Shown piece after piece: positions 3,291-57,735 of a stretch of 58,642 nucleotides of DNA. Below the pieces are notes generated by a model, which worked only from the letters and a program-made list of their open reading frames with translations, made no database searches and had not been told where the DNA came from. Location: the UHGV virus genome UHGV-0101169; one strand, given 5' to 3'. The translations under genes were made by a program, and so were the position numbers. This DNA comes from a virus. The first letter of the stretch is position 1. Every line of letters begins with the position of its first letter.

Positions 3291-3797
3291 CGAGTTGTGC
3301 GCCCTTCTCACGGCTCCAGGGCAACCCTACAAGACTCAGCTATATTGTACATAAAGCATACACCAGATTTTTTTATCTGTCAAGCATATACACTATGTCA
3401 TTTTTACAGATACCCCAGACCCTTATATATAATATATATTAATAATAATTATCGTTGATTATATTAAAAATAAAATATATAAAAAAATTAATATAATAAT
3501 TAAATTCGCCAAAGGGATTAAAAGAGATAAAAGGATATAGAATAATAATAGGGGGTATGGGGGAAAGAAGAAGGGAAAAGGGAAGAAGAGAAATTAAGGG
3601 AAAGGACACATTTTTACACGCATTGTCTACCCGCTGATCTGCTCACCTTGCCCGGCCGCCCGGGTCCGGTCCGGTTGCGATCTTTGTAGCCCTGGAAAAC
3701 CTAGGATTTGCGCCGGTTTCCGGGATTTATGAAAGTTGCCCGGCGCAGCTCCTGAAAATGTCATCAAAGCGTAAAAATAGACGGTATGAACACAGGG

Positions 3798-3940
3798 TGA
3801 ACCAGAAAGCGAACTAACACATGAACCACCAGACGAACTAGCAAAAACCCAGTAAATACAAGGTTTTTAGAGCATATGAGAACAGCAGGCGAACCAACTA
3901 ACGAACCAGTAAACGGACACCCAGACGAACCAACAAGACA
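3798..3940. repeat. iteron cluster R: at least four ~22-bp units TGAACCA-N5-6-CGAACTA(R)C
   Basis: Units tgaaccagaaagcgaactaac, tgaaccaccagacgaactagc, cgaaccaactaacgaaccag and gacgaaccaacaagacac. An inverted homologous cluster lies at 35388-35469. Confidence 0.6.
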
Positions 3941-3941
3941 C

Positions 3942-3969
3942 AAAAAAGGGGCCATATTCGACCCCTTTT
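3942..3969. terminator. bidirectional intrinsic terminator (A6-GGGG..loop..CCCC-T4)
   Basis: aaaaaaGGGGccatattcgaCCCCtttt. In minus sense the hairpin is followed by U6, directly downstream of the 3999..4154 gene. Confidence 0.5.
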
Positions 3970-3998
3970 CATGTGGGACGGTTGCCCGTCCCGGTGGT

Positions 3999-4154: not shown

Positions 4155-4216
4155 CTTTTACCTCTCTTTCTGGCTCTCGCCTATTGCCATTCGGTTACTA
4201 CCTCTTGACAGTTATT

Positions 4217-4245
4217 ATTATATACTATTATTAGTATAATATCAA
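4217..4245 (-). promoter_or_regulatory. consensus sigma-A promoter (TTGATA-17-TATAAT) with the 18-bp palindromic operator TATACTAnnnnTAGTATA in its spacer
   Basis: Minus-sense TTGATAttatactaataatagtaTATAAT. The palindrome spans 4221-4238. An identical 18-mer lies at 4569-4586. Confidence 0.6.
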
Positions 4246-4249
4246 TAGG

Positions 4250-4477
4250 TTAATAAAATTTTATTTTTTCGTCATCTGTTGGGATAACCTCGATAATATC
4301 ACCAGGTTGCATTTTTAACATGATACAGATTTTGTTTAGCGTATCTAATGTAATGCTTTTTCCTGCTTTTATGTTCTGCATCGTTTGCCGTGGTAACAGA
4401 TTGTCACGCTGCAATTTTGTTTGATTGTATCCCCTTTCTTTCAATTCTTTAAACACATCAATTTTATAATTTATCAT
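4250..4477 (-). CDS. XRE/Cro-CI family HTH transcriptional regulator (HTH_26-like), candidate repressor
   Basis: Sequence MINYKIDVFKELKERGYNQTKLQ...IKAGKSITLDTLNKICIMLKMQPGDIIE is a classic HTH_26 pattern. SD AAGGAGG. It sits between two outward-facing operator-bearing promoters. Confidence 0.7.
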   Translation of the reverse strand: MINYKIDVFKELKERGYNQTKLQRDNLLPRQTMQNIKAGKSITLDTLNKICIMLKMQPGDIIEVIPTDDEKIKFY

Positions 4478-4561
4478 GGCGTTACCTCCTTATATATAAA
4501 GATAGCATTTTATACCTTAAAAGTCAAATTTTGTTTATACTAAAAATAGTGTATTTATATA

Positions 4562-4590
4562 TTGACATTATACTATTATTAGTATATAAT
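4562..4590 (+). promoter_or_regulatory. consensus sigma-A promoter (TTGACA-17-TATAAT) with the same 18-bp palindromic operator in its spacer
   Basis: TTGACAttatactattattagtaTATAAT. Operator at 4569-4586. Drives the plus-strand operon beginning at 4640. Confidence 0.65.
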
Positions 4591-4639: not shown

Positions 4640-5020
4640 ATGAAAAAAATCAAAATTGAAAACGGAAAAATCTATTCAGAGTCTTTCGGAAAAACGAACG
4701 TATTCGAGATTGTCGGAAGAATCCCGGTAAGTTATCAGATCTGGAACATCGGCGAAAACATGGGAACACATGACTACATTCCATTATGTCAAGACCTGCA
4801 CCCAGAAGATAAAGACGATTACAGCATTAACCCGGCAACACTTAAAGCTATAAGAGTAACCCCGGAAGAATGGGAGAAGCTGAACAAAGCAGCAAATTAT
4901 GGAGTTAATAACCTCCAGACAGCAGCCAAGGCGTTAAAGAGTAAACGTCGCGGATACATGAGCGACAAGAAAAGAGCGCTTGCAGAACTCACAATTGACA
5001 TTTTTATGAAAATATCATAG
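4640..5020 (+). CDS. hypothetical early protein (126 aa)
   Basis: ORF with SD AAAGGAGA. First gene downstream of promoter PR. Confidence 0.6.
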   Translation: MKKIKIENGKIYSESFGKTNVFEIVGRIPVSYQIWNIGENMGTHDYIPLCQDLHPEDKDDYSINPATLKAIRVTPEEWEKLNKAANYGVNNLQTAAKALKSKRRGYMSDKKRALAELTIDIFMKIS

Positions 5021-5101: not shown

Positions 5102-5377
5102 ATGACAAAGAACGAAATGCTGAAAGAACTTGATAGACTGGAGAAAGAAAAAGGCGTTGACCTGGACGGAATCGGCCAGAACAGCAATAAAAGCACTATC
5201 CAGAACGCTATAAACTGCCTGTTATGCCCAGATGATCTGTTAGAAAAGTATTTGACCGTTTTAACGCTCAAATACCCAAATACAGGCGCAAAAATCTCAG
5301 AAAATGGAGACTTTAAAAAGCACCGTTTCAATCGGTTATATGTTTTCAATACCGCCAGAATGATTTTAGCAGATTAA
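5102..5377 (+). CDS. hypothetical early protein (91 aa)
   Basis: ORF with SD AAAGGAGAA. GC-rich stem-loops flank it. Confidence 0.55.
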   Translation: MTKNEMLKELDRLEKEKGVDLDGIGQNSNKSTIQNAINCLLCPDDLLEKYLTVLTLKYPNTGAKISENGDFKKHRFNRLYVFNTARMILAD

Positions 5378-5441
5378 GCCGAAACGCCCGTTAGGGCGTC
5401 CGGATCGGGTGCCGCCGGTTCGCTGATGATGGCAGGCAGAA

Positions 5442-8368: not shown

Positions 8369-9001
8369 TTACAGTTTGGTAGCCAGCGCAGAAATCTTAG
8401 ACTTAAGCATATTGCGTTCTTCCGGTGTCATATCAGACAGCAGCCCTGTGATGTCAGAAGAAATTTCTTTAAAATAATCTTCCAGGCCTCTCATTTTGGC
8501 TTCTTTGTCCTGCGGAGTATTAGCTCTATGCAGTTCTTTTGTTTCGGTGTAATTGCGCTTTGCTCTATCATAGTTGCTTTCGCTCATGGTCATACTTGGC
8601 TCAGTGTAGTACATCCGCCCGGTATTTCTGTCCATGTCCCGGTATTCCTGCATGTCTTTGTACATTTCCGGGGTCATTCTCCAATATGGTCCTTCATATC
8701 CTCTGCGATAAGTGCCTCTGCCTTTTGGAGCAAATCTTCCGTCAGAATAGCGGTAATGATCGTAATATCGTCTTTCTGGATAATCTTCATATTGTTCCAG
8801 CATTTCCATAATATCATCGTTTTCTTCTGCTTTTTTCATTGCCTCTACGATTTTAAAATCTTTATCAAAGCAAGCAATGTTCTTAGCAATTTCTGTCCAA
8901 TCTTTCAAATCATCCAGATTTTGTCCTTCAAAATTCTCAATTCCGATTGATTCCGCTTTTGCCTTAACACATTCCAGGATTTTTTTTGCCCATTCATGCA
9001 T
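8369..9001 (-). CDS. hypothetical protein (~210 aa), acidic/Tyr-rich
   Basis: ORF with the ATG (MHEWAKKI) placed after AAAGGGTGG. Confidence 0.5.
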   Translation of the reverse strand: MHEWAKKILECVKAKAESIGIENFEGQNLDDLKDWTEIAKNIACFDKDFKIVEAMKKAEENDDIMEMLEQYEDYPERRYYDHYRYSDGRFAPKGRGTYRRGYEGPYWRMTPEMYKDMQEYRDMDRNTGRMYYTEPSMTMSESNYDRAKRNYTETKELHRANTPQDKEAKMRGLEDYFKEISSDITGLLSDMTPEERNMLKSKISALATKL

Positions 9002-9017
9002 ACATTCCACCACCCTT

Positions 9018-9440
9018 TCACGCTTCTCTGGTAACTACAAGGTTAGCGTTAGCCACTTCAATAGCCTGTGTGCTGGTATTTTCAACCGCAATATTCGCAC
9101 AGCAGCCTGCCGGAACATCAATATAGATTCCGGCGGACACGTTGTTATACTGTGATACTGCTGCCGGAGTGGAGCGCATCTGAGATGAAAGAACCGGTTC
9201 TCCACTGATTGCGATTGCCAGAGAAATTTCACCTGCTGTTCCACCTGTCGGGACGGCGATATTTGCGGAAAAGTTTACAAAGTATCTTGCTCTGCACTGA
9301 TTGGTCAACCCACGAAGCGTGATAATGCCGGATCCTTCCCGGTGTTTAATGCAATTCCCGCCTTTAACAGCGGTGCTTGTAAAGACTACGTTCCCATTCT
9401 GCGCTACTTCCTGAGCAGCTACAGCCACAAATTCAGCCAT
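9018..9440 (-). CDS. BclA-C/C1q-like (TNF-fold) domain protein
   Basis: FTSTAVKGGN...GSGIITL...RYFVNFSANIAVPTGGTAGEISLAIAISG pattern. SD GGAGGT precedes the ATG at 9440. Confidence 0.35.
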   Translation of the reverse strand: MAEFVAVAAQEVAQNGNVVFTSTAVKGGNCIKHREGSGIITLRGLTNQCRARYFVNFSANIAVPTGGTAGEISLAIAISGEPVLSSQMRSTPAAVSQYNNVSAGIYIDVPAGCCANIAVENTSTQAIEVANANLVVTREA

Positions 9441-9567
9441 AATATTTACCTCCATAAATGATAAGGGCAGACTGTTAAGCCTGCCCTGTGTAATTCTGCT
9501 ATGCAGACATAACCTGTTTGGTTAAGTTACGATTATTCCGTTGTAACCGTATGTGATTCCATACGGT

Positions 9568-10359
9568 TTAGCAACCGCAGCCTGTATTGCAGCCACAGCC
9601 ATATGCATAAGCGTTCGGATTCGGAACAACGTATGCCGGAACTGCTGCCGGATTAACCGCGTTGATAATCTGCTGTGTCTGATTAGCCATCTGAGTTGTG
9701 AGCAATGCGCTCTGACGATCCTGAGAAGCTGCCCGACGAAGATCGTTGTTTTCTGCTTGCAGAGAAGAAATCTTCTCATTGCACAGATAATCAAGAATAG
9801 CACGGGTTCCAGCATTCTGGCTATCAATAATATCTCTGGTATTGTTGTTCATTGTATTCTGCAATGCGCAGGTATTCTGTGCCATGTTGTAGTTTACGCC
9901 CTGGATTGCTTCCCGGGTTTCGCAGCAACATGAAGCATTTTGAGCTGCCATATTAGCAAGTGTAGACTGAATAGCATTTGTATTCTGCATTCCCGCTACT
10001 GTATCAGCGTTGATAGCCTGCTGAATGCCATAGCCTGTCTGAAGTATATTGGTATTAATACCATTAAATCCAGTCAGCATGCCATTGTTTACAGCATAGA
10101 AGCCATCACATAATCCATTAGAAATTCCGTCAAGTTTGCTGATAACCGCCTGATTATCAAAACCACGCTGGATCGCAGAATCCGTATAATAGCTAGAGTT
10201 GGAACCGTTTCCTCCCCAGCCTCCATTGCCCCATCCTCCGAATACGAAAAACAGAACAAACAGGATGATCCACCATCCATTGCCATCTCCAAAGCCATCT
10301 CCTCCGTTGCCATAAGCAGGAGTTACCGGCATTGTAAAAGGTGTGTTTGAATTAAACAT
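9568..10359 (-). CDS. Gly-rich single-TM protein with Q/N-rich ectodomain and Cys clusters (CCCE; C-terminal GCGCNTGCGC)
   Basis: N-terminal GNGGDGFGDGNGWWIILFVLFFVFGGWGNGGWGGNG, then a low-complexity Q/N/A/T region. SD AGGAGGTAAAATCATG. Confidence 0.5.
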   Translation of the reverse strand: MFNSNTPFTMPVTPAYGNGGDGFGDGNGWWIILFVLFFVFGGWGNGGWGGNGSNSSYYTDSAIQRGFDNQAVISKLDGISNGLCDGFYAVNNGMLTGFNGINTNILQTGYGIQQAINADTVAGMQNTNAIQSTLANMAAQNASCCCETREAIQGVNYNMAQNTCALQNTMNNNTRDIIDSQNAGTRAILDYLCNEKISSLQAENNDLRRAASQDRQSALLTTQMANQTQQIINAVNPAAVPAYVVPNPNAYAYGCGCNTGCGC

Positions 10360-12103: not shown

Positions 12104-12342
12104 CTTCTTTTACCTCCTCTAAAACTTCCTCTATTGCATGAATTACGGCAGACTGAGTTTGCAAATCAAGTCTCTGCAATTCTTCTCTGGCAAAAATCTT
12201 TTCTAAAACTTCATCAGAAAACATACCTCATCCTCCTTCCACTTAAATTTTCGCATAAAAAAAGACGGTTAAACCGTCAAATTATCGCAAATTATCAGTA
12301 TATTATTAGTAAAACAGAATAAAAACCTATCCATTTATGAAT

Positions 12343-12386
12343 TTCAACTTTCTATATTTCGGTCCAGCGATACTTAGAAAGTTGAA
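12343..12386. promoter_or_regulatory. 12-bp perfect inverted repeat TTCAACTTTCTA-N20-TAGAAAGTTGAA abutting the recombinase stop; candidate attP core or terminator
   Basis: Perfect arms lie 6 bp from the serine recombinase stop codon. No adjacent U-tract. Confidence 0.35.
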
Positions 12387-12391
12387 GTATA

Positions 12392-13741
12392 TTACAAAGT
12401 AACAAAACGAATCGTAATTTCGTCCTTGTCAACCACTATATCTTCAACGCATTGCTTCAATATTTTGTTTTTTTCTTTCAATGTCAAGCTGTCCCAAACA
12501 TCTGACATATGCCTGATTTCTGCTATTTTTGTTGGATCACACCTCTTTTCTGTTTTTGCATCATCGAGTTTCTTTTTTAATTTCTTGATATTTTCTTCCT
12601 CTGCTTTTATCACATCAAGTAGATTTTCGCTAGGGTTATCTGCATATAAGCCGTACAACCGCCTAACTTTTGTATCAGATTTTTTTAACGATTCCACTAA
12701 AATTTCAGTGCTATCTTGATGGCTTTCAGTATACTCATTAATATTAATGGCAAAATTTTTAAAACATTCTTCCACTTCTGCTTCGATTTTATAAGCATCT
12801 ACTGGATGATTTTTGCAACAATCTGACTTTCGCATATATGCTTTTGAACTTTGATAATGTGAATAGCACACCAACTTCATTGTTTTTGCAGTCCATTTCT
12901 GGTATCTCATTCTTGCGCCGCAGTAACCACAATGGCACAAACCTGTCAGTAAATGTCCGCTACTCAAATAAGCATTGGTATGTCTTTTTTTCATTTCGTC
13001 TTGGACTTTCCAAAATACCTTTTCATCAATAATTGGTTCATGTCTGCCTTTATATACCTTGCCTTTATATTCAATTAAACCAATATTTGATTTTCGTTTT
13101 AAAATCCCCTTAACTATTGGTTCACCTTTAAATCCAAGAATCTTTGAAATGTTTTCGCAAGAAAATCCATTTAGATACAGATCATATACTTTTCGCACCA
13201 CAGACGCTTGTTGCTCATTAATGTGTAATATGCCATCATTGCGATCATAATAATATCCCCATGGGGTTCTGCCACCACCCATCCAATATCCTTTTTTTAC
13301 GCGTTCTAACATCCCGGCGGACATTCTCATTCGAATAACTTCACGTTCATACTGGTTCATGGCCGCATTCATTGTCAACATCATCCTGTCCATTGGATTT
13401 TCTGTCCGTAGTTCTTCAGTCATAGAAATAACCTTAACTCCATATCCAGGAAGAATTTTGTAAAACAAGTTCAGCGTATCAATAACATCTCGGCTCATGC
13501 GATCAAGCTTGTAGATGTACACTGTATCAATGATTCCGCTTTTTGCGTGGTTCAAAAGTTCTTGAATCTCTGGTCTGTCAAGTTTGCTTCCACTATACCC
13601 CCCATCTATGTACCATTTGTCAATAGTAATACCATGTTTTTCACAGTAATCCATTATTTTTTGTTTCTGCATATCCAAGCCGTACTTTTCAGTCTGTGTT
13701 TCTGTTGATACTCTCAAATATGCCACCTGCAATTTGCTCAT
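12392..13741 (-). CDS. large serine recombinase (integrase)
   Basis: N-terminal resolvase catalytic domain (YLRVSTETQ...), recombinase domain and Cys-rich zinc ribbon (CHCGYCGARM). 449 aa. Confidence 0.85.
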   Translation of the reverse strand: MSKLQVAYLRVSTETQTEKYGLDMQKQKIMDYCEKHGITIDKWYIDGGYSGSKLDRPEIQELLNHAKSGIIDTVYIYKLDRMSRDVIDTLNLFYKILPGYGVKVISMTEELRTENPMDRMMLTMNAAMNQYEREVIRMRMSAGMLERVKKGYWMGGGRTPWGYYYDRNDGILHINEQQASVVRKVYDLYLNGFSCENISKILGFKGEPIVKGILKRKSNIGLIEYKGKVYKGRHEPIIDEKVFWKVQDEMKKRHTNAYLSSGHLLTGLCHCGYCGARMRYQKWTAKTMKLVCYSHYQSSKAYMRKSDCCKNHPVDAYKIEAEVEECFKNFAININEYTESHQDSTEILVESLKKSDTKVRRLYGLYADNPSENLLDVIKAEEENIKKLKKKLDDAKTEKRCDPTKIAEIRHMSDVWDSLTLKEKNKILKQCVEDIVVDKDEITIRFVTL

Positions 13742-14862: not shown

Positions 14863-15516
14863 TTATCTCAAGCCAAGTGCTTTTAATTTCTCCATGGCAT
14901 TATCAGGAATGCCATGCAACCTTACAGAAGCTTTATTTTTCTGTTTTTCCTCTTCTCTCGTATTTTCTATCAATTTGGTATCCGAAGCCTCTAACCTTCC
15001 TGCCAATGCGTTCTGGTTAAGATTTTCAACTAATTCCCTAATTTTTTCAGGAAGTTTATTAAGTTCCTTTCTTCTATCCATAACCACACGATATGACCTC
15101 ATAAAATTGCTACTGGCAACACTCTCATTAAAAGTTTCGTCCATAGCCCATATTTTGAGTTGTTCTGGCCTGCCAACTGCCTTTTGAACCGATGCGGGAA
15201 GTTTTTGAAATTCTTCACCACTGTTGTATGTGCTATTTCTCAATGCCTTGCTTACTAAAGTCCAGGCTTCCAGCTCATTCATTTCTTGTGGAGAAGTTAA
15301 CAGCATGATTTTTTCCATAATCTGTCCTGGAGAAGGCGCAAAGCCGCTGGAATTTGTACGCATGTATATAGCAAACGCCCGTTGAACTGTATCCCATTCG
15401 CAATCACTTAATGCCATTCTCCAGGCATTAACTGCTGCTGTCTTATCTGGAGGATTAAAGTTCGGATAAGTTGCCTGTATCATTGCAAGCAAGTTCTGAG
15501 TTTCTTCTCTTGTCAT
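14863..15516 (-). CDS. G39P-like helicase loader/inhibitor family protein
   Basis: N-terminus TREETQNLLAMIQATYPNFNPPDKTAAVNAWRMAL resembles SPP1 G39P. TAATG overlap with the upstream replisome organizer. Confidence 0.45.
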   Translation of the reverse strand: MTREETQNLLAMIQATYPNFNPPDKTAAVNAWRMALSDCEWDTVQRAFAIYMRTNSSGFAPSPGQIMEKIMLLTSPQEMNELEAWTLVSKALRNSTYNSGEEFQKLPASVQKAVGRPEQLKIWAMDETFNESVASSNFMRSYRVVMDRRKELNKLPEKIRELVENLNQNALAGRLEASDTKLIENTREEEKQKNKASVRLHGIPDNAMEKLKALGLR

Positions 15517-16151
15517 TATGACTGCCTCCATTCATCTATAAGATTTCTATCTGTATGGGTTTCAGGCTGCTTCCGTGTTCTCTCCCATGTCCTAACAGCA
15601 GCTTTCCAGTCTTTCATCTTGTTTTTGCCTATCATCCAGCCTTTAGAACTGTAAAAATTTACAAAAGATTGAGCATCAATTCCATTTTGCCTTTGCTCAC
15701 AGTAAGCCTGGACCTCATCCGCTGTTGGTGGAATAAAAATCTGTCTTTTTGGTTCAGGCTTTTTCTCTGCGTTAGGTGGTTCATCTGGTGGTTCGTTAGG
15801 TGGTTCACTCAGATTTTCGGTAACCTGAAATTTATTGTAATTTACTACGTTTATCAGCGTTCCTCTGTTGGTTCGCTCCGTGGTCACCATTTGTTCATCC
15901 TCCAACAGTTTAAGGAATCGTTTAACTTTATTTCTGGACCATGACCAACGGGCACTTAGCTTCTCTATGCTGAACATATAGGAGCCTTTTGGAACTATGG
16001 TAGTCTTGCCGTCTATCAACATTTTTACATCCTTATGAGAAGCTGAAAGCAATATATCTATCCAAGCTGATCTTCTATCAAACGCCTCCCTACTGTTCCA
16101 AATAGAACAGTCAAATATTTGTCTATGTAGCTTTATCCAGCCTTTTTCCAT
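15516..16151 (-). CDS. phage replisome organizer (DnaD-like N-terminal domain)
   Basis: MEKGWIKLHRQIFDCSIWNS...SRNKVKRFLKLLEDEQMV, plus the C-terminal motif FVNFYSSKGWMIGKNKMKDWKAAVRTW. Confidence 0.6.
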   Translation of the reverse strand: MEKGWIKLHRQIFDCSIWNSREAFDRRSAWIDILLSASHKDVKMLIDGKTTIVPKGSYMFSIEKLSARWSWSRNKVKRFLKLLEDEQMVTTERTNRGTLINVVNYNKFQVTENLSEPPNEPPDEPPNAEKKPEPKRQIFIPPTADEVQAYCEQRQNGIDAQSFVNFYSSKGWMIGKNKMKDWKAAVRTWERTRKQPETHTDRNLIDEWRQS

Positions 16152-28115: not shown

Positions 28116-28931
28116 CTACGCACAATACTTAACTTCATACTCCTGGACGATTTTGGAGTAAATCTCACGAAGTTTCTTGTCATGTTCAATTACATCAATC
28201 TTTTTGATGTCAATCTGTTTCTTAGTTCCGCCAGCGTTTTCAATTCTCTGCTTCATGTTTCTGACACGTTTACCCAAATCGGCGCCAGCCCTACGTTCAA
28301 GTTCCTTATGCATTTCAGCCTGTAACTCTGCATAACCAATATTTGCTTTGAGAGCAATCTTTACTATTTTTGCCCTGATCTCCACACGCCAGTTATCCAT
28401 AATTGGTTTAACAGCTTCTTTGATATTCTCCGTAGTCTCAACAGCTTTCCGCGCTGTTTCATTCGCAAGAGCTATCTTCCGGTCGCGTTCCTTATCTTCC
28501 AGCTCTTTATTTGCAATGCTCTGCGCTAATTGCAAAATGAGTTGTGTCTGTGGAGATAAGTCCTCTGTGGCAAGTTTCCTTGCTTTAAAGTAGCCATTTA
28601 CAAGCTGTCTCTGAACTGTCCACGCCAAATCGTCCGTAAACGACTTGACTAACATCAAATAACCTTGTTCTGTCAGAAGAACCACTTCATTGTTTGGATT
28701 TCCGCCTTTTGAGTTAGGTACGAAATTCGTACAGAACTCTGAATACGGTATTATAAAGTAATCTTCATCTTTTATAAAATGTTCTCTATTTACATTGAAA
28801 TTTCTTTTTGCCGTTCCCTCAGGTCTTTCATGGACCATATCAATATCTTTCAATGTAATCACTCTTTGATTTCGATATTCTTTTACTGAAATATCTGAAT
28901 TTCTGATACGTATTAGCTCATTCATTTTCAT
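28116..28931 (-). CDS. ORF6N-domain antirepressor-like protein
   Basis: VKEYRNQRVITLKDIDMVHERPEGTAKRNFNVNREHFIKDEDYFII fits ORF6N. Confidence 0.6.
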   Translation of the reverse strand: MKMNELIRIRNSDISVKEYRNQRVITLKDIDMVHERPEGTAKRNFNVNREHFIKDEDYFIIPYSEFCTNFVPNSKGGNPNNEVVLLTEQGYLMLVKSFTDDLAWTVQRQLVNGYFKARKLATEDLSPQTQLILQLAQSIANKELEDKERDRKIALANETARKAVETTENIKEAVKPIMDNWRVEIRAKIVKIALKANIGYAELQAEMHKELERRAGADLGKRVRNMKQRIENAGGTKKQIDIKKIDVIEHDKKLREIYSKIVQEYEVKYCA

Positions 28932-35231: not shown

Positions 35232-35325
35232 TTATTGGCAGTAATCTTTCTGCCCCCAAAGGTAAAATCAGGGGACTTTTTCTTTTTAGATTATTACGTA
35301 AGTAATAATCTTTTTCTTTTTAATT

Positions 35326-35371
35326 TCTTACATTCTTATATTCTTACATTCTTTATATTCTTACATTCTTG
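35326..35371. repeat. three tandem ~16-bp repeats TTCTTACATTCTT(T)ATA
   Basis: Copies begin at 35326, 35341 and 35358. Confidence 0.55.
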
Positions 35372-35387
35372 TTTTGTGGTCCGCCTG

Positions 35388-35469
35388 GTAGTTCAAGTGG
35401 TGGTTCAACAGGTAGTCCGTTAGGTGGTTCAATAGGTAGTTCATCTGGTGGTTCGTTGGTTGGTTCAAT
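35388..35469. repeat. iteron cluster R' (four ~22-bp units, inverted relative to cluster R at 3798-3940)
   Basis: Reverse-complement units tgaaccaaccaacgaaccacc, tgaaccaccagatgaactacc, tgaaccacctaacggactacc and tgaaccaccacttgaactacc. Confidence 0.6.
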
Positions 35470-35650
35470 ATTTTTTCAAAAAGTTAGCAAACCGTTGATT
35501 TTACTAGCTTTTTCGGCTATCAATATCAGTTCGCCAGTTGGTTCACATACCCAACACTACTTGAACACCAAAGTAATCACTAAACGTACACCAAAACGAT
35601 CACTCATCGATCACATTTTTAGGCATATTTTGACGGTCATAAAAGCCATT

Positions 35651-36277
35651 TTAAAGCTCATAATCTGGATAAACAGCTTCCCAAACATCTTTATGATAAG
35701 CATTAATCGACCCATAATTAGCGTCGAAGATCTTCTTGACTTCGTACCCCATACGTTCCCCAGCCTCTTTTAGCCTTCTCCATTTGAATGTTTTCCAAGA
35801 AACATTATTCAGTGCTGCTACTCGCTTGATAGAGTACCAATCTTTGCTTGTATCAAGCTGTGCCTGTAGCTCTGCTTCCCGATCCAGGCTTTCCAAAAGC
35901 TGTGCGATAGCGTCCCGGTAAGACATCGGCATATTCATCTTATCGTCTTTCTTCTGGAAGTAATTGTCAACTAGGCGGTCATACACTTCCCACGCCTGAT
36001 CCGTGTTCAGGGACTTAGCGTGAAGAAAAGCACCTTTTTCTGTCCAAAGGTAAATTGTTTTTGCATTTTTCAGACCGTCGTGATTTTCCAGACGGTTCAC
36101 AAATAGGGTCTTTTCTTCATTTTCAAGTTTTATAAAATGTTTTCCTTCTATAAAACGATCAATATTGTGGTTAAAATTGTACGAGATTGTTTTTCTGTCC
36201 GTTCCATACGCTTCCGCAATCTGCTGTGTGGTTAAAACTCTCTGGCATCTGTACTCTGTTACTTTTAATCCTTCCAT
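35651..36277 (-). CDS. ORF6N-domain antirepressor-like protein
   Basis: TEYRCQRVLTTQQIAEAYGTDRKTISYNFNHNIDRFIEGKHF. SD GAAGGAGA. Confidence 0.6.
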   Translation of the reverse strand: MEGLKVTEYRCQRVLTTQQIAEAYGTDRKTISYNFNHNIDRFIEGKHFIKLENEEKTLFVNRLENHDGLKNAKTIYLWTEKGAFLHAKSLNTDQAWEVYDRLVDNYFQKKDDKMNMPMSYRDAIAQLLESLDREAELQAQLDTSKDWYSIKRVAALNNVSWKTFKWRRLKEAGERMGYEVKKIFDANYGSINAYHKDVWEAVYPDYEL

Positions 36278-37835: not shown

Positions 37836-38483
37836 TTATGCTGTCAAGTATGCAATATCTGCAAATCTCTCCAATCTGTCTTTGCAGTCCTTGTAAATAT
37901 CTTTATATGGCATTCCCATTGACATGTCAATTCTAATTGTCTGTAAAATAATGCTTTCAACTAACGTCAGGTTATTCAGGTCGGTAACCGATACAGTGTC
38001 CCGATTTCCACCAATGATTGATTTTGCCAACTTTGTATATGTGAGATACAGTTTATCAGAATGCGTACTGCCCTGTTCTTTCGCATAATCAACAAGCATC
38101 TTAATCACATCAGTTTCTTTCAGTCGGTTTTCTTTGTTGGCAAGTCTGGTGTCGTTCCACTGCTTTGACTGTTTATCCAGAAGAAATTTGCGCATGGCAT
38201 AGAACTGACGCACAAGTTCCTTTTTGAATTTGACTACTGTTTTGGAATTTCTCAAAAGGGTAATGACAAAAGTTGCCTGCTCTTCATTCAGATAAATAAC
38301 TTCCATGGGTCTTCCACCTGAACTTTCCTCATTTAAAATGAGCAAAGTACCGAACTCTTCGATATCGCTTTGGTATTTCTTGATTACCTCTCTTACTGCA
38401 TGATGCTGATTTCCTGTCCCTTCTGCAATCACCTTACTATTTGTAAATACATCGTTTCCTTTAAGTTCCACTAATTCATACAT
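37836..38483 (-). CDS. rha: phage regulatory protein Rha
   Basis: N-terminus LVELKGNDVFTNSKVIAEGTGNQHHAVREVIKKY is a typical Phage_pRha domain. Confidence 0.65.
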   Translation of the reverse strand: MYELVELKGNDVFTNSKVIAEGTGNQHHAVREVIKKYQSDIEEFGTLLILNEESSGGRPMEVIYLNEEQATFVITLLRNSKTVVKFKKELVRQFYAMRKFLLDKQSKQWNDTRLANKENRLKETDVIKMLVDYAKEQGSTHSDKLYLTYTKLAKSIIGGNRDTVSVTDLNNLTLVESIILQTIRIDMSMGMPYKDIYKDCKDRLERFADIAYLTA

Positions 38484-53893: not shown

Positions 53894-54337
53894 TCATTTT
53901 GACTCATTGTAGGACACTTTGCCACCTAAATACTTATTCCCGTACATATTTTCAAAAACAGCCAATGCATTGTAATAAATCCTTTTGACTTGTTTAAGCG
54001 AAATATCACCTCTAAGTCGAATGGTTTTTAAATCCTTATCCAAAATAAACTTCTGACACAGAACATCATACATATTCGTATCTGGAATGCTTTCAATTTC
54101 TTGAACAATCTCATATCGCTTATCAATAATATTGTCAACTTCACGTTCCATATCTACAATTTTGGAAACATATGAACTAATTTTGTCAGGATTCTTCGAG
54201 GTCTGTATTCTATCACCATTACTCTGAACAGCCGATGTGCTGTAGATAATAGACCTTAGATTTTCAACTTCCTTTAATTTATTTTCAATCATTCGATTAT
54301 ATCTTACTACTAAAGATAAATACTCTCTCGTTTCCAT
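53894..54337 (-). CDS. hypothetical protein (147 aa)
   Basis: ORF only. Abuts the terminase stop. Confidence 0.45.
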   Translation of the reverse strand: METREYLSLVVRYNRMIENKLKEVENLRSIIYSTSAVQSNGDRIQTSKNPDKISSYVSKIVDMEREVDNIIDKRYEIVQEIESIPDTNMYDVLCQKFILDKDLKTIRLRGDISLKQVKRIYYNALAVFENMYGNKYLGGKVSYNESK

Positions 54338-57177
54338 TATCCAAACCTCCTAAACGGATTTATTACTGCTTCAACCTTTGCTGTCCTGTTCCCTTGCGTA
54401 ATCCTAAGCGCAAAGTTTGAGAATACATCTGGAACATCGTCTAATTGCTTCTTTCCAGATACAGAATATTGCTTAAGCAACGTCATCATCACACCATATG
54501 GTTCTTTCGGTGTATACTTTGACGCATCTTTGAATATCACATGTTGTAATATCCAGTTTGAGCACTGGAAGATACGTGCTTCTTTGTTAGTTTCAGTAGG
54601 GACATCAGTGATATTACAAATCCATCCCTTTGCTTCTACTCGCTTATTGACTTCCATTGCTACACGGTCACCACCAGCATTTCTCTCAAATTCGCACTCA
54701 ATAACCTCGTTATTGACAAGCATATTTGCCGCATTTTCATACTGCATTTCATAATCTGCTGTATTGTCGCACACGGCATCCACACAATAATAATCTTCAC
54801 CAAATTTTTGGAATACTGGCATAACAAAATAATCAGTTCCCTTACCCTTGGTATCGCACTGAGCTGTGACAATCTCAGGTACACCATGTGGCAGATTCAA
54901 ATATCGCCTGATTTTATCTTCTGGGAATAACAGGCCCTCACGTTCAATAGGCTCCTGCTTATACAGACATTTGTATGAAATATCATCCATCAATAATTGT
55001 TGGTCTGCAAAGAACTCCTCGTCAAAGCCTGAGAATTCATAATCAAAATTGCTCTTTCCAGTAACCGGATCAACATCAGGAACAGCAATTACCTTTACCC
55101 TCGGATTACCTTCATACATTTTTTGGATACGCCCTATGACATCCTGGACACTCCATCTGGTTGCAATGTGTATTTCCTTACAATTCTTACCATCAGTATC
55201 TTTGATTTTTCTTTGGCGTGCATCTACGGAATACTTACTCCACAACTTTTCAAGTATAGCCGGATTCAATGCTTCCTCGATACCGCCAATCATATCATCA
55301 ACCAGCAGAAACTTAGAAGCACGGACTTTACCCGCATTTTTGCTTCCTACTGATGTGCACTGCACAGATGGGAACGGCTTATATTTTCCTACGTTGAACT
55401 GTTCTGTCTTTGCATTTGTACTTGTCACATACAAATCAGGGAAAATCTCATTCCATGCATATTCGTCTGAATTAGTAACTATATCATATATACCGTCATA
55501 GTACATTCTGGTAATATCACCGCTATGGGAATAAAACAAATTGAAGTCTTTCGGATACCAGCCAATTACTGCAGCATTGAAGAATTTTTCAATGGTAGTA
55601 TTGTGAGTAATAATGTAATCATCTGTAATGTACAAATGGCAAGGATTATCAATCATAATACACTGGCACTCTTCTTCTCCTACATACTCAATATTTTTTA
55701 TATAACGTTTCCAAAGCTTGCGTTTTGGATTATATATTTTAGCTTTTCTCTCTAACCAAAATGGATTATCATGATTTGCACTAAACAAAATTGTAATCCT
55801 ATAGTTATCAAGGCACGAAACACTATTGCCGTCCTTGTCTCTGTACCCAGATTTCCGTTTTGTTAAGCTCGCATATCCTCCCAAAGAACGTACTAATTCT
55901 GTTACATTTTCCGCAAGTTTTTGAGAGGCTGTTGAATATTCTATTCCCTTGTATTCTGCGTATCCGTCTGTATCTAACAATCCACGTAATAGCCACAATC
56001 TTTGTTCATGACTTGAATATAGATATTCTTCTGGTATAAATTTTGTAGCAGATTTTGTACCAAGAAGGCCTAATCTATTTAGTTCCTCTTTTAATAGGTT
56101 GGGTTTTTTTGCAGCATCTTTAGAGCGCAAATAATAATCTTTATCACTTCCACGTTTTAGGACAAACTCATATCCGCCAATGAGTGAATTGATTTTTTCA
56201 ACTATTTCTTTATCTTTTTTTGTAAAGCAAATTGTTTTTGTACTTAATCCACCATCTCCCAATAAGCATCCAAGAAGATACGGGTGTATATAAAACTTTT
56301 TTTCTTCAAAGGCTTTAATTTCGGGAACATAGTCTATAGAATAGTTTTTCCTTCCGTCTTTTTCAATAATAAAATCTTTAAGCATATCTTCCGTTTTTAT
56401 TATTCTTGTCCTATGATTTCCCGTCCTTGTTTCAAATTGTCTATCACACCGATTTTGTACTTCCCATAAGTGATTATCTGAAACTTCTGTAAAGCCTCCG
56501 TCATTCATTGTAATTCTGTATATTCGGCGTTTCCCTTGTGGATATACTCCAATAACAGACGCTTTTTCTCCGTCTCCGGCCACAACCTTTGTTCCAACCT
56601 TTACATCACGCATTTCAATGAATCCGCTTGGTGTTAGGACTTTAGACGACATCTTTCCAGCTTTCCCGGCACCAGGAATAAGGCTAATGCACAAAATGTC
56701 GTACTTGTCATCAATCATGCCCTGTAAAGCATCCACCAAACCGATTTTAAGCAGCTGTTTGCGCCTAGGCATATAAAACCGCTCTTTCGGTTCTCTTTTG
56801 TGCTCTATATACCTGAAAAAACTGTCAATCACTTTATGTTGAGCTTCTAAAAGCAAAACCGAATAAAAACAGTCTATCAGCTCCAATATGGTTTTATTGG
56901 TTGTCTTATACTCAAATGCATATTTTTCCAATTCCCATATAGCACCACCTGTCTGTTCTAAACAATAACGCTCCGTCAGCTCCTTTGAGCGCTTTGCAAG
57001 TTGTAATCCATAATGAATATCATTTTCACCATTAATAGCCACTGCGCAAGCCTTTGCGTATGCCTGAACAACCCGCCAATCGACACCGTTAGCCTGTATG
57101 TAATTTTCATATTCCCTGATTGTTTGCTTCAGATTTTCGGAAGCCAAAAGAAAAGCACCTCCACTTTCAAAAAGCAA
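54337..57177 (-). CDS. terL: terminase large subunit interrupted by an intein; TTG start (an alternative TTG 30 nt downstream has SD GGAGGTG)
   Basis: P-loop region LIPGAGK..., Walker B KFLLVDDM, C-terminal nuclease-like region. 946 aa because of a ~350-aa intein. Confidence 0.8.
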   Translation of the reverse strand: MLFESGGAFLLASENLKQTIREYENYIQANGVDWRVVQAYAKACAVAINGENDIHYGLQLAKRSKELTERYCLEQTGGAIWELEKYAFEYKTTNKTILELIDCFYSVLLLEAQHKVIDSFFRYIEHKREPKERFYMPRRKQLLKIGLVDALQGMIDDKYDILCISLIPGAGKAGKMSSKVLTPSGFIEMRDVKVGTKVVAGDGEKASVIGVYPQGKRRIYRITMNDGGFTEVSDNHLWEVQNRCDRQFETRTGNHRTRIIKTEDMLKDFIIEKDGRKNYSIDYVPEIKAFEEKKFYIHPYLLGCLLGDGGLSTKTICFTKKDKEIVEKINSLIGGYEFVLKRGSDKDYYLRSKDAAKKPNLLKEELNRLGLLGTKSATKFIPEEYLYSSHEQRLWLLRGLLDTDGYAEYKGIEYSTASQKLAENVTELVRSLGGYASLTKRKSGYRDKDGNSVSCLDNYRITILFSANHDNPFWLERKAKIYNPKRKLWKRYIKNIEYVGEEECQCIMIDNPCHLYITDDYIITHNTTIEKFFNAAVIGWYPKDFNLFYSHSGDITRMYYDGIYDIVTNSDEYAWNEIFPDLYVTSTNAKTEQFNVGKYKPFPSVQCTSVGSKNAGKVRASKFLLVDDMIGGIEEALNPAILEKLWSKYSVDARQRKIKDTDGKNCKEIHIATRWSVQDVIGRIQKMYEGNPRVKVIAVPDVDPVTGKSNFDYEFSGFDEEFFADQQLLMDDISYKCLYKQEPIEREGLLFPEDKIRRYLNLPHGVPEIVTAQCDTKGKGTDYFVMPVFQKFGEDYYCVDAVCDNTADYEMQYENAANMLVNNEVIECEFERNAGGDRVAMEVNKRVEAKGWICNITDVPTETNKEARIFQCSNWILQHVIFKDASKYTPKEPYGVMMTLLKQYSVSGKKQLDDVPDVFSNFALRITQGNRTAKVEAVINPFRRFG
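55600..56649 (-). mobile_element. intein with LAGLIDADG homing endonuclease inserted in the terminase P-loop
   Basis: Hint block A (SSKVLTPSGF...VGTKVVAGDG) aligns to canonical inteins. Block B SDNHLW. Two LAGLIDADG motifs (LLGCLLGDGGL; LWLLRGLLDTDGYA). C-terminal ITHN followed by Thr. Confidence 0.75.
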
Positions 57178-57246
57178 AGGTGCTAGTGACCTCTGCCTAT
57201 AATTTTTTAGGTTAGCAACTGTATCTAACTACAGCCGGTAATGTTC

Positions 57247-57627
57247 TTATGAATTTGTTGGCACTGCTTCTTCACGCACCGAATTGAGAAGCTCGTTATA
57301 ATTGTCAATCACATATTCTGCTCTGATACGATAGTTCTTGATTCCATAAGCAGACGCAACACTGCTCTCGGTTTCGCACCCTTTACAGTCCCAGCTGTTA
57401 TCAAGTCCGATAAACACATCTGCTTCTGCCAGTTTTTCTAGTGACTTACCCAAATACCAGACACCAGCATTATTATTTTCAGGTGGATTATCTTCAATGT
57501 ATGTATCAATCAGCTCCAACGCCTCACCTTCACAAATTTCGGCAATTTTCTTCATCTTCTCGATACTTGTCTTAATTGCTTCCTCTGTTCTGTCTCTCAT
57601 TGGTACACTTACAAATAATTTTTTCAT
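57247..57627 (-). CDS. DUF4406 / nucleoside 2-deoxyribosyltransferase-like protein
   Basis: LFVSVPMRDRTEE...ADVFIGLDNSWDCKGCETESSVASAYGIK pattern. Strong SD GGAGGAAAATCATG. Confidence 0.45.
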   Translation of the reverse strand: MKKLFVSVPMRDRTEEAIKTSIEKMKKIAEICEGEALELIDTYIEDNPPENNNAGVWYLGKSLEKLAEADVFIGLDNSWDCKGCETESSVASAYGIKNYRIRAEYVIDNYNELLNSVREEAVPTNS

Positions 57628-57735
57628 GATTTTCCTCCATATTAATTGCCCGGCTGCCGTCGCGTCTACAGCATCTCTTTTGACCATATTGGTGCGTGGG
57701 TGCAACGAACTTTCCTACCTCGGGCAAACATGATT

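Follow-up and report, generated by a model that had tools for sequence, protein, structure and literature searches.

Three arrays of a 12-bp iteron, one of them inside the replisome organizer gene, are putative replication-origin sites of a temperate gut phage

The virus genome UHGV-0101169 (58,642 nucleotides; this whole stretch of DNA is called the window here) carries three arrays of one 12-bp direct repeat. Two of them are extragenic, namely, array R on the plus strand (positions 3799 to 3938) and array R′ on the minus strand (35371 to 35466), and the third lies on the minus strand (15771 to 15806) inside the gene for a predicted replisome organizer (15516 to 16151, minus strand). Judging from the DNA sequence, we consider it likely that the repeats are iterons, i.e., putative binding sites for this organizer, which is the phage's own protein of the G38P family known from phage SPP1. 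From the same kind of evidence, we infer protein binding, origin firing, and the role of each array. R′ probably represents an orphan origin corresponding to SPP1 oriR and is the best candidate for the origin that fires, as it combines eight plus two iterons with an abutting candidate unwinding element and is the sole array to have one. The in-gene array may be a retained site, possibly a regulatory one or a weak origin. R would be either a further origin, opened through an AT-rich stretch at 3423 to 3522, or an auxiliary initiator-binding site, and its function is the least certain of the arrays.

The repeat unit consists of a core, GAAC(C/T)A and usually GAAC(C/T)ACC, followed by four variable bases. 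Strict alternation between GAACCA and GAACTA produces a 24-bp double unit in R′ and the first half of R; an earlier note on this DNA had taken this double unit for an iteron of ∼22 bp. That note had described two inverted clusters, R with at least four units and R′ with four. Both clusters are present where it placed them, inverted relative to each other and 31.5 kb apart, with the early genes and the in-gene array between them, but their unit counts are nine (R) and eight (R′), and the third cluster, which is the key to the interpretation, had been overlooked. The note's account of the surroundings was correct (an AT-rich stretch, a purine tract, a GC-rich block, three 16-bp repeats, and a palindrome). 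For a statistical comparison, we searched both strands of the 58.6-kb window for the pattern GAACYA-N6-GRACYA and found 12 matches, all of them confined to R, R′, and the organizer gene; dinucleotide shuffles gave an expectation of 0.05 matches and a maximum of 1. Tandem Repeats Finder independently reported R′ at 35387 to 35468, with periods of 12, 24, and 36.

R′ is made up of eight contiguous iterons of the form GAAC(C/T)ACC-N4, and an outlying pair on the same strand (GAACCAACTGGC GAACTGATATTG; 35521 to 35544) is located 55 bp upstream in iteron orientation. The last iteron abuts three AT-rich repeats of the AAGAATG type, AAGAATGTAAGAATAT (35325 to 35370, minus strand), so that the end of the array reads ...GGACCACAAAAC AAGAATGTAAGAATAT AAAGAATGTAAGAATAT AAGAATGTAAGAA. 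These repeats, 16 to 17 bp long and also reported independently by Tandem Repeats Finder, are the candidate unwinding element, and matching repeats, A(A/C)NAATG, come after the in-gene iterons in SPP1 and in about half of the homologues. The position right after the last R′ iteron is the sole site in the window with at least three A(A/C)NAATG motifs within 80 nt. Nearest-neighbor calculations of duplex stability ranked the 100-bp segment abutting R′ (35275 to 35374) as the fourth least stable of the window. Two of the other three lie around a Cro-like gene (4199 to 4590) or just inside the 251-amino-acid (aa) gene left of R, depending on the segment size; the AT-rich stretch at 3423 to 3522 is the least stable 100 bp of the whole window and is least stable at segment sizes of 60 to 100 bp. 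Iterons followed by A(A/C)NAATG repeats give R′ the complete two-part origin layout of the organizer family, outside any gene.

The in-gene array comprises three units, GAACCACCTAAC GAACCACCAGAT GAACCACCTAAC, with extra single units at 15874 to 15863 and 15755 to 15744, and it is 91% identical to R′ over 35 nt (E ∼1e-7). It encodes the linker EPPNEPPDEPPN, at approximately aa 115 to 127, which joins the two domains of the organizer. The N-terminal domain of the protein is 41% identical to SPP1 G38P over aa 3 to 109 (E = 5e-26 by BLASTP and 5e-18 by tblastn), and the organizer matches phrog_2514 (1e-29) as well as the PHROG "DnaD-like helicase loader" and "replication initiation" families. The core GAACYA is retained in the organizer variants of two further loci (L290 and L438). 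An identical organizer protein is found in 651 index blocks from hundreds of metagenome assemblies, mostly on contigs of 52 to 61 kb, while in the GTDB genome collection the N-terminal domain has distant relatives only. Directly downstream of the organizer gene lies a G39P-like helicase-loader gene (14863 to 15531, minus strand; phrog_9804, 2e-52; phrog_2289 "helicase loader," 1.6e-7), and upstream are genes for a RecT-type recombinase, an SbcC/RecN-like ATPase, and a metallo-beta-lactamase-fold protein.

In SPP1, G38P binds the iterons ("AB boxes") of oriL, which is located inside gene 38 beside an AT-rich unwinding element, and its affinity for a second site, oriR, is similar (PMC5737612, PMC6316719). 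The virion-assembly genes of SPP1 are interrupted by an intergenic, moron-like segment, and oriR is situated there (PMC6316719). As a control, we ran identical scripts on SPP1 and recovered the oriL-oriR similarity: gene 38 has units with an 11-bp period at nt 35937 to 35990, followed by AACAATGA repeats, and a copy is present at 4876 to 4950. We then surveyed the organizer family. Nearly all of ∼60 full-length homologues from IMG/VR have periodic repeats at approximately aa 100 to 120, which matches the position in the gene studied here. Their period is mostly 11 bp and sometimes 12 or 22 to 24 bp, and their cores are lineage specific (for example, AAACGAC, TGACCAG, TAACAAA, and CGAGACC). At least two A(A/C)NAATG motifs were present in the iteron/linker part (nt 285 to 540) of 33 of the 69 organizer genes scored, SPP1 and the window included, and in the organizer genes inspected, among them that of a Vibrio phage, these repeats directly follow the iterons.

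Taken with the arrays, this survey favors the replication-origin reading that the earlier note had listed first among several, since R′ shows the iteron-plus-AT-repeat layout of the family's origins. It likewise speaks for the replisome organizer as the predicted binder, which the note had named as a candidate, because the same iteron recurs inside the organizer's gene at the position of the iterons of SPP1 and ∼60 homologues. The note's suggestion of two origins would have a direct precedent in SPP1 oriL and oriR (PMC6316719, PMC5737612). This position also bears on the idea that the arrays are operators for some other DNA-binding protein of the phage (an antirepressor of the ORF6N/Rha type or a Cro/CI-type protein) controlling late and tail gene transcription, with an incidental match in the organizer gene. 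The genomic setting lends that idea some appeal, as R lies between the terminator of the early operon and a promoter-like site for the next minus-strand genes, and R′ lies upstream of a 142-aa tail gene, beside an ORF6N gene (35651 to 36277, minus strand). An incidental match would nevertheless have to explain a phased core exactly where the homologues carry their iterons. Moreover, head-to-tail runs of eight or nine units with 12-bp phasing are atypical of repressor operators, R′ contains no promoter-like site, and two relatives without the adjacent ORF6N gene still have R′, which argues against the ORF6N protein as the binder. We therefore regard operators as improbable.

To see whether the arrays are maintained, we compared them among relatives. 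An IMG/VR contig of 41 kb (3300045988_071685; loci L267, L001, and L203) is syntenic with the window at ∼80 to 95% identity and has all three arrays. R′ was also found in contigs 047598 and 073970 and in the more distant 065977, and R was also found in 073970 and in near-identical assemblies from other samples; block 1 of R is conserved in L266, L267, and L432/L435/L436. The related-phage check proposed by the earlier note thus found the iterons of both R and R′ present and conserved. Across three relatives, positions 1 to 8 of the R′ units differ by 1% and positions 9 to 12 by 28% (Fisher P = 2e-12, a value that is indicative only, as the sequences are not independent); against the more distant relative, the same positions differ by 12.5% and 46%. 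Across five sequences, the AAGAATGTAAGAATAT repeats show little variation. Conservation with a 12-bp rather than a codon (3-bp) pattern indicates that the R′ cores are under selection as DNA.

The slot occupied by R′ has a different content in other members of this phage group. In 17 related loci (L205 to L219, L222, and L262), it holds an initiator-like gene matching PHROG replication-initiation families (best E = 7.5e-7), located after a Rha-like gene and immediately upstream of the 142-aa tail gene. In L215 (contig 3300045988_069168), the sole locus that we inspected in detail, this gene (8847 to 9902) encodes a 351-aa protein that has no Pfam hit and is unrelated in sequence to the organizer of the window, and the gene has two 27-bp repeats of its own, followed by AACAATGATTAC repeats. 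The window and L215-type relatives thus share the slot and an order of direct repeats followed by a second set of repeats; the difference is that in the window, the slot contains an origin-like element without a gene. With initiator-like genes in the R′ slot of relatives, this slot appears to be a place where origin modules recur in the phage group. Six contigs with this different initiator arrangement share the tail module with the window (74 to 78% identity in the 142-aa protein), and in 069168 the gene next to R is shared as well (84%). GAACYA arrays are absent from the R′ slot in all six and from the R slot in 069168, the only one in which that slot could be compared. R and R′ go with the organizer type of the window wherever the initiator is readable, that is, in contig 071685.

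In the six contigs with a slot gene and a readable early region, only a 161-aa Phg_2220_C protein (for example, L445, 2534 to 3016) is encoded upstream of the loader. Between them, the slot initiator-like protein and the Phg_2220_C protein match the N- and C-terminal parts of one PHROG, phrog_428; such a division suggests that the initiator is split or modular.

An initiator gene in the R′ slot of relatives could also mean that R and R′ have no function and are the decaying remains of organizer gene fragments that were once duplicated or recombined, and R′, read in the frame of the in-gene array, does give an organizer-like linker, EPTNEPPDELPIEPPN...QNKNV. If so, coding remnants of the organizer domains might be expected, and none were found around R or R′. 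Decay is also at odds with the almost invariant cores and the 12-bp conservation pattern of R′, and both arrays persist across several diverged relatives and samples. Functionless leftovers are, in our judgment, very improbable.

R is the more degenerate of the extragenic arrays. Its nine units fall into two blocks: block 1 (3799 to 3846, plus strand) contains four 12-bp iterons, GAACCAGAAAGC GAACTAACACAT GAACCACCAGAC GAACTAGCAAAA, and block 2 (3880 to 3938, plus strand) contains five, the first a degenerate unit of 11 nt and the others GAACCAACTAAC GAACCAGTAAAC GGACACCCAGAC GAACCAACAAGA. The array is located where the early and late gene blocks meet, directly next to a terminator-like hairpin (3943 to 3970, minus strand) that closes the upstream minus-strand operon. 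On its other side follow a GC-rich block (3625 to 3760; up to 74% GC at 3625 to 3674, against ∼40% in the window) and a purine-rich tract (3511 to 3606, plus strand; GC skew of +1.0 at 3525 to 3599), both kept in relatives, and then the AT-rich stretch at 3423 to 3522 (∼6 to 10% GC, with 6% at 3425 to 3499), a candidate unwinding element ∼280 bp from R. RNA structure tests of the GC-rich block gave a z score of −1.5 and essentially no covariation support from three sequences.

As R lies in a large noncoding region preceding the gene block that leads to the terminase genes, and as one related contig ends inside this region, R might be read as a pac or cos packaging site bound by the small terminase, a reading that the earlier note had also entertained. 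The contig end falls in low-complexity DNA, where assemblies often break, and the terminase genes themselves (54337 to 57705) are ∼5 kb from R. A pac site would also leave unexplained why the iteron recurs in the tail region and in the organizer gene; the arrays match the initiator gene's own repeats. Packaging is therefore a scarcely probable function of R.

A more serious contender is that the extragenic arrays bind the organizer and never fire, being only control elements such as polar or nonpolar fork barriers that set off the theta-to-sigma switch, or sinks and handcuffing sites that restrain initiation, for instance so that the prophage origin stays silent. For SPP1, oriR-bound G38P has been proposed to stall the replication fork and thereby trigger the switch from theta to rolling-circle replication (PMC3485210, PMC6316719). 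Consistent with such a role, R comes directly after a terminator and has no abutting AT-rich repeats, and R and R′, in opposite orientations, stand on either side of the early region with the in-gene array. Iteron plasmids likewise use extra arrays, such as incA of P1, for copy control. For R, this explanation overlaps with the one that we prefer. R′, on the other hand, has the complete layout of the family's active origins and sits on very unstable DNA, whereas the in-gene array, which would be the alternative firing site, is without any unwinding element. We consider it unlikely that both extragenic arrays are control elements only.

If the repeats are indeed iterons of the organizer, the N-terminal winged-helix-type domain of the protein would bind the phased GAAC(C/T)A(CC) cores cooperatively, the adjoining AT-rich element would melt, and the G39P-like loader would then recruit the replicative helicase. 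This helicase is probably that of the host, as no domain of a phage DnaB-type helicase (the G40P of SPP1) was found by Pfam and PHROG searches in the ORFs of the replication region or elsewhere among the ORFs scanned. In an auxiliary role, R might act as a fork barrier for the theta-to-sigma switch or through initiator titration or handcuffing. The inversion of R relative to R′, on either side of a 31.5-kb early segment, is compatible with fork control but does not demonstrate it.

A bolder extension would join R, R′, and the in-gene array into a three-site initiator network combined with a modular origin cassette. In one version, R′ would fire, and the organizer bound at R would form an orientation-dependent fork barrier; R, and possibly the in-gene array, which lacks a DNA unwinding element (DUE), would set where the first theta round stalls, and the stall would fix the place and direction of a RecT-dependent switch to rolling-circle concatemer synthesis. 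In the other version, the three arrays would handcuff one another and so silence the origin in the integrated prophage. In the cassette part, an origin, either alone or together with an origin-binding gene, would come and go at one fixed slot of the tail module in this gut phage group, as it appears to do. As a whole, this network is quite unlikely to hold, and we offer it tentatively.

Several observations weigh against the iteron-origin interpretation. R has no abutting AT-rich repeat element, its AT-rich stretch being 280 bp away, and its cores differ in relatives by 19% and its spacers by 25%, which is not a significant difference; positions 7 and 8 are variable, and most of the core changes are the tolerated C/T at position 5. 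It is this weak contrast between core and spacer, together with the variable positions 7 and 8, that marks R as the more degenerate array. The in-gene array has only three units, no A(A/C)NAATG motif beside it, and no unwinding element; the organizer gene of the closest relative is likewise without the AT-rich part. The resemblance of the loader to G39P is weak (PF11417 at 19.4 bits, below the cutoff of 22; 23% identity; pairwise E = 3e-6). We found no DnaA-box cluster at R or R′. The organizer could not be read in three of the contigs that carry R′ (047598, 073970, and 065977), the last of which was not retrieved by a search with the loader protein either.

Another such point comes from the family survey. 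A second array within 10 kb on either side of the organizer gene was found neither in the loci of 86 relatives nor in one complete Vibrio phage genome, either by a blastn-short search with the origin segment or by a scan for phased cores that was controlled with permuted cores and is of limited sensitivity, as it also missed SPP1 oriR. Extra arrays are thus not a general trait of the family. Because many iterons are A/C rich, k-mer clusters gave too noisy a signal to reveal second arrays in relatives. The lack of a phage DnaB-type helicase weakens the claim of an SPP1-like module, although not the claim that the arrays work like the SPP1 origins. The cumulative GC skew of the window tracks gene orientation only and points to no origin, and GATC sites are not enriched at the arrays. 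When compared as DNA with 50,697 phage records, the R region and each half of the window yielded only short matches to Enterocloster phages, and among the matches listed from two iteron-pattern scans of IMG/VR, unrelated coding repeats of the EPPxEPP type predominate.

We also asked whether the phage is maintained as a plasmid. A near-identical copy is present on an 85-kb ENA scaffold (L434), where homology to the phage ends at window position 12364, 28 nt past the stop codon of a large serine recombinase gene (12392 to 13741, minus strand), the product of which is likely the integrase. Beyond the phage-host junction (L434, 13760 to 20636), the scaffold encodes a sigma-70 region 2 protein, CoaX, CoaBC, RF3, YqeY, and an M20 peptidase. 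A copy beside bacterial housekeeping genes indicates that the phage integrates, and attP would lie near 12,300 to 12,364, where the phage homology ends; the area from 12300 to 12391 contains two copies of a small direct repeat, CAAATTATCG. The two ends of the window do not overlap but are contiguous in a relative, so the window represents about one genome.

Integration leaves little room for the phage-plasmid lifestyle raised in the earlier note, under which the arrays would be centromere-like partition sites (parS, parC, or tubC-like) of a plasmid prophage. Centromeres of types Ib, II, and III typically have phased direct repeats grouped in two or more clusters, and the 12-bp period is reminiscent of TubR sites. 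No matches to ParA, ParM, TubZ, or ParB were obtained for ∼50 ORFs in five Pfam/PHROG batches, some small ORFs falling outside the scan. With no partition genes found, a serine recombinase encoded, and an integrated copy at hand, we rejected a TubR/tubC-like centromere and regard partition sites of any type as extremely improbable.

The likeness to SPP1 extends to several features: the homologous origin-binding N-terminal domain, the iterons in the organizer gene just past the part encoding this domain, a further extragenic iteron site in the tail gene/virion-assembly region, iterons followed by AT-rich A(A/C)NAATG repeats (in this phage at R′), a weakly G39P-like gene after the organizer gene, and a RecT-type recombinase. 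There are also clear differences. The present phage has three arrays rather than two, with a 12-bp period and another core instead of the 11-bp period of SPP1; the AT-rich element abuts only R′ and is missing from the in-gene array; and one extra array, R, is inverted, whereas oriL and oriR are equally oriented. The C-terminal domain of the organizer is unlike that of G38P, no DnaB-type helicase of the phage was found, and the phage is temperate, integrating by a serine recombinase, while SPP1 is lytic.

Phage lambda offers a second comparison. Its single origin consists of four ∼19-bp iterons inside the O gene, in the part encoding the linker between the DNA-binding and partner-binding domains, with an adjoining AT-rich region and no extragenic arrays. 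The embedding of iterons in the linker-coding part of an initiator gene is the same in our case. The organizer matches the PHROG "O-like" families weakly and has no significant relationship to lambda O beyond such remote profile hits. In iteron plasmids (P1 incC/incA and F incB/incC), there are several initiator-binding arrays, some outside the firing origin and in either orientation; these arrays, by titration or handcuffing, provide a model for a possible role of R, with the difference that their initiators belong to the Rep family and the elements are plasmids with partition systems.

The general kind of arrangement, iterons in the organizer gene plus a second, extragenic set, is therefore already known from SPP1. 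What differs here is the presence of three arrays, one of them inverted, the 12-bp period, an in-gene array without an unwinding element, and a probable orphan origin of complete layout in a tail-module slot occupied by initiator genes in relatives, all in a temperate, integrating phage for which no helicase of its own was found. Read in this way, the arrays would extend the SPP1 two-origin model, which so far rests on essentially one experimental case, to a temperate phage of the Clostridia type whose layout is different. Replication origins are almost never annotated in the thousands of genomes of uncultured gut phages, and the analysis suggests a simple and transferable rule for finding them: take the phased repeats from where the organizer gene encodes its linker, and search the genome for the same phased core. 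Applied here, the rule yields three concrete candidate sites. If fork barriers or handcuffing are involved, this natural variant would allow direct tests of the theta-to-sigma switch and of the silencing of a prophage origin. Cloned R′ or R fragments could also serve as replication decoys; in dairy phages, origin-encoded phage resistance works by origin decoys.

Apart from these results, the surroundings of R′ contain further repeats. An AT-rich palindrome, AGATTATTAC-GTAA-GTAATAATCT, is located at 35288 to 35311 between direct repeats of CTTTTTCTTTTTA. Upstream of R′ (35560 to 35620, minus strand), two GTGATCG motifs are followed by GTGATTAC, GTGTTCAA, and GTGTTGGG at ∼11- to 12-bp spacing, and a distant relative (L212) has four GTGATCG motifs. 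This family could represent degenerate iterons or the sites of another factor.

Relatives of 53 to 61 kb (L053 to L071; for example, L054, 9512 to 10234) encode organizers whose C-terminal domain is 65 to 68% identical to that of the window but whose N-terminal domain is unrelated. Their genes contain a different iteron, GGTAAGGATAGTATA, of 15 bp, present in three to five copies that encode GKDSI repeats. This looks like domain swapping with a matching change of the iteron.

Elsewhere in the window, Rfam gave matches to a type II hammerhead ribozyme at 5377 to 5441 (plus strand; 41.5 bits, with a gathering score of 37), between two small plus-strand ORFs, and a skipping-rope RNA at 57645 to 57728 (minus strand; 52.7 bits, with a gathering score of 36.7), which overlaps the beginning of the ORF located upstream of the large terminase gene. 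Three minus-strand tRNA genes, Lys-TTT (69 to 141), Tyr-GTA (439 to 530), and Gln-TTG (806 to 879), lie between R and the terminase genes; Rfam at its gathering score recovered two of the three. The large terminase (54337 to 57177, minus strand; assigned by PHROG) is encoded by an ORF of 946 aa, which is unusually long for this protein. The two halves of the ORF match different terminase families, and the N-terminal half also matches primase and DnaC-like P-loop families. Finally, two genes encode ORF6N-domain, antirepressor-like proteins (28116 to 28931 and 35651 to 36277, both on the minus strand) and one encodes a Rha-like protein (37836 to 38483, minus strand), and two of these three genes are located inside the tail gene region as moron-like insertions.

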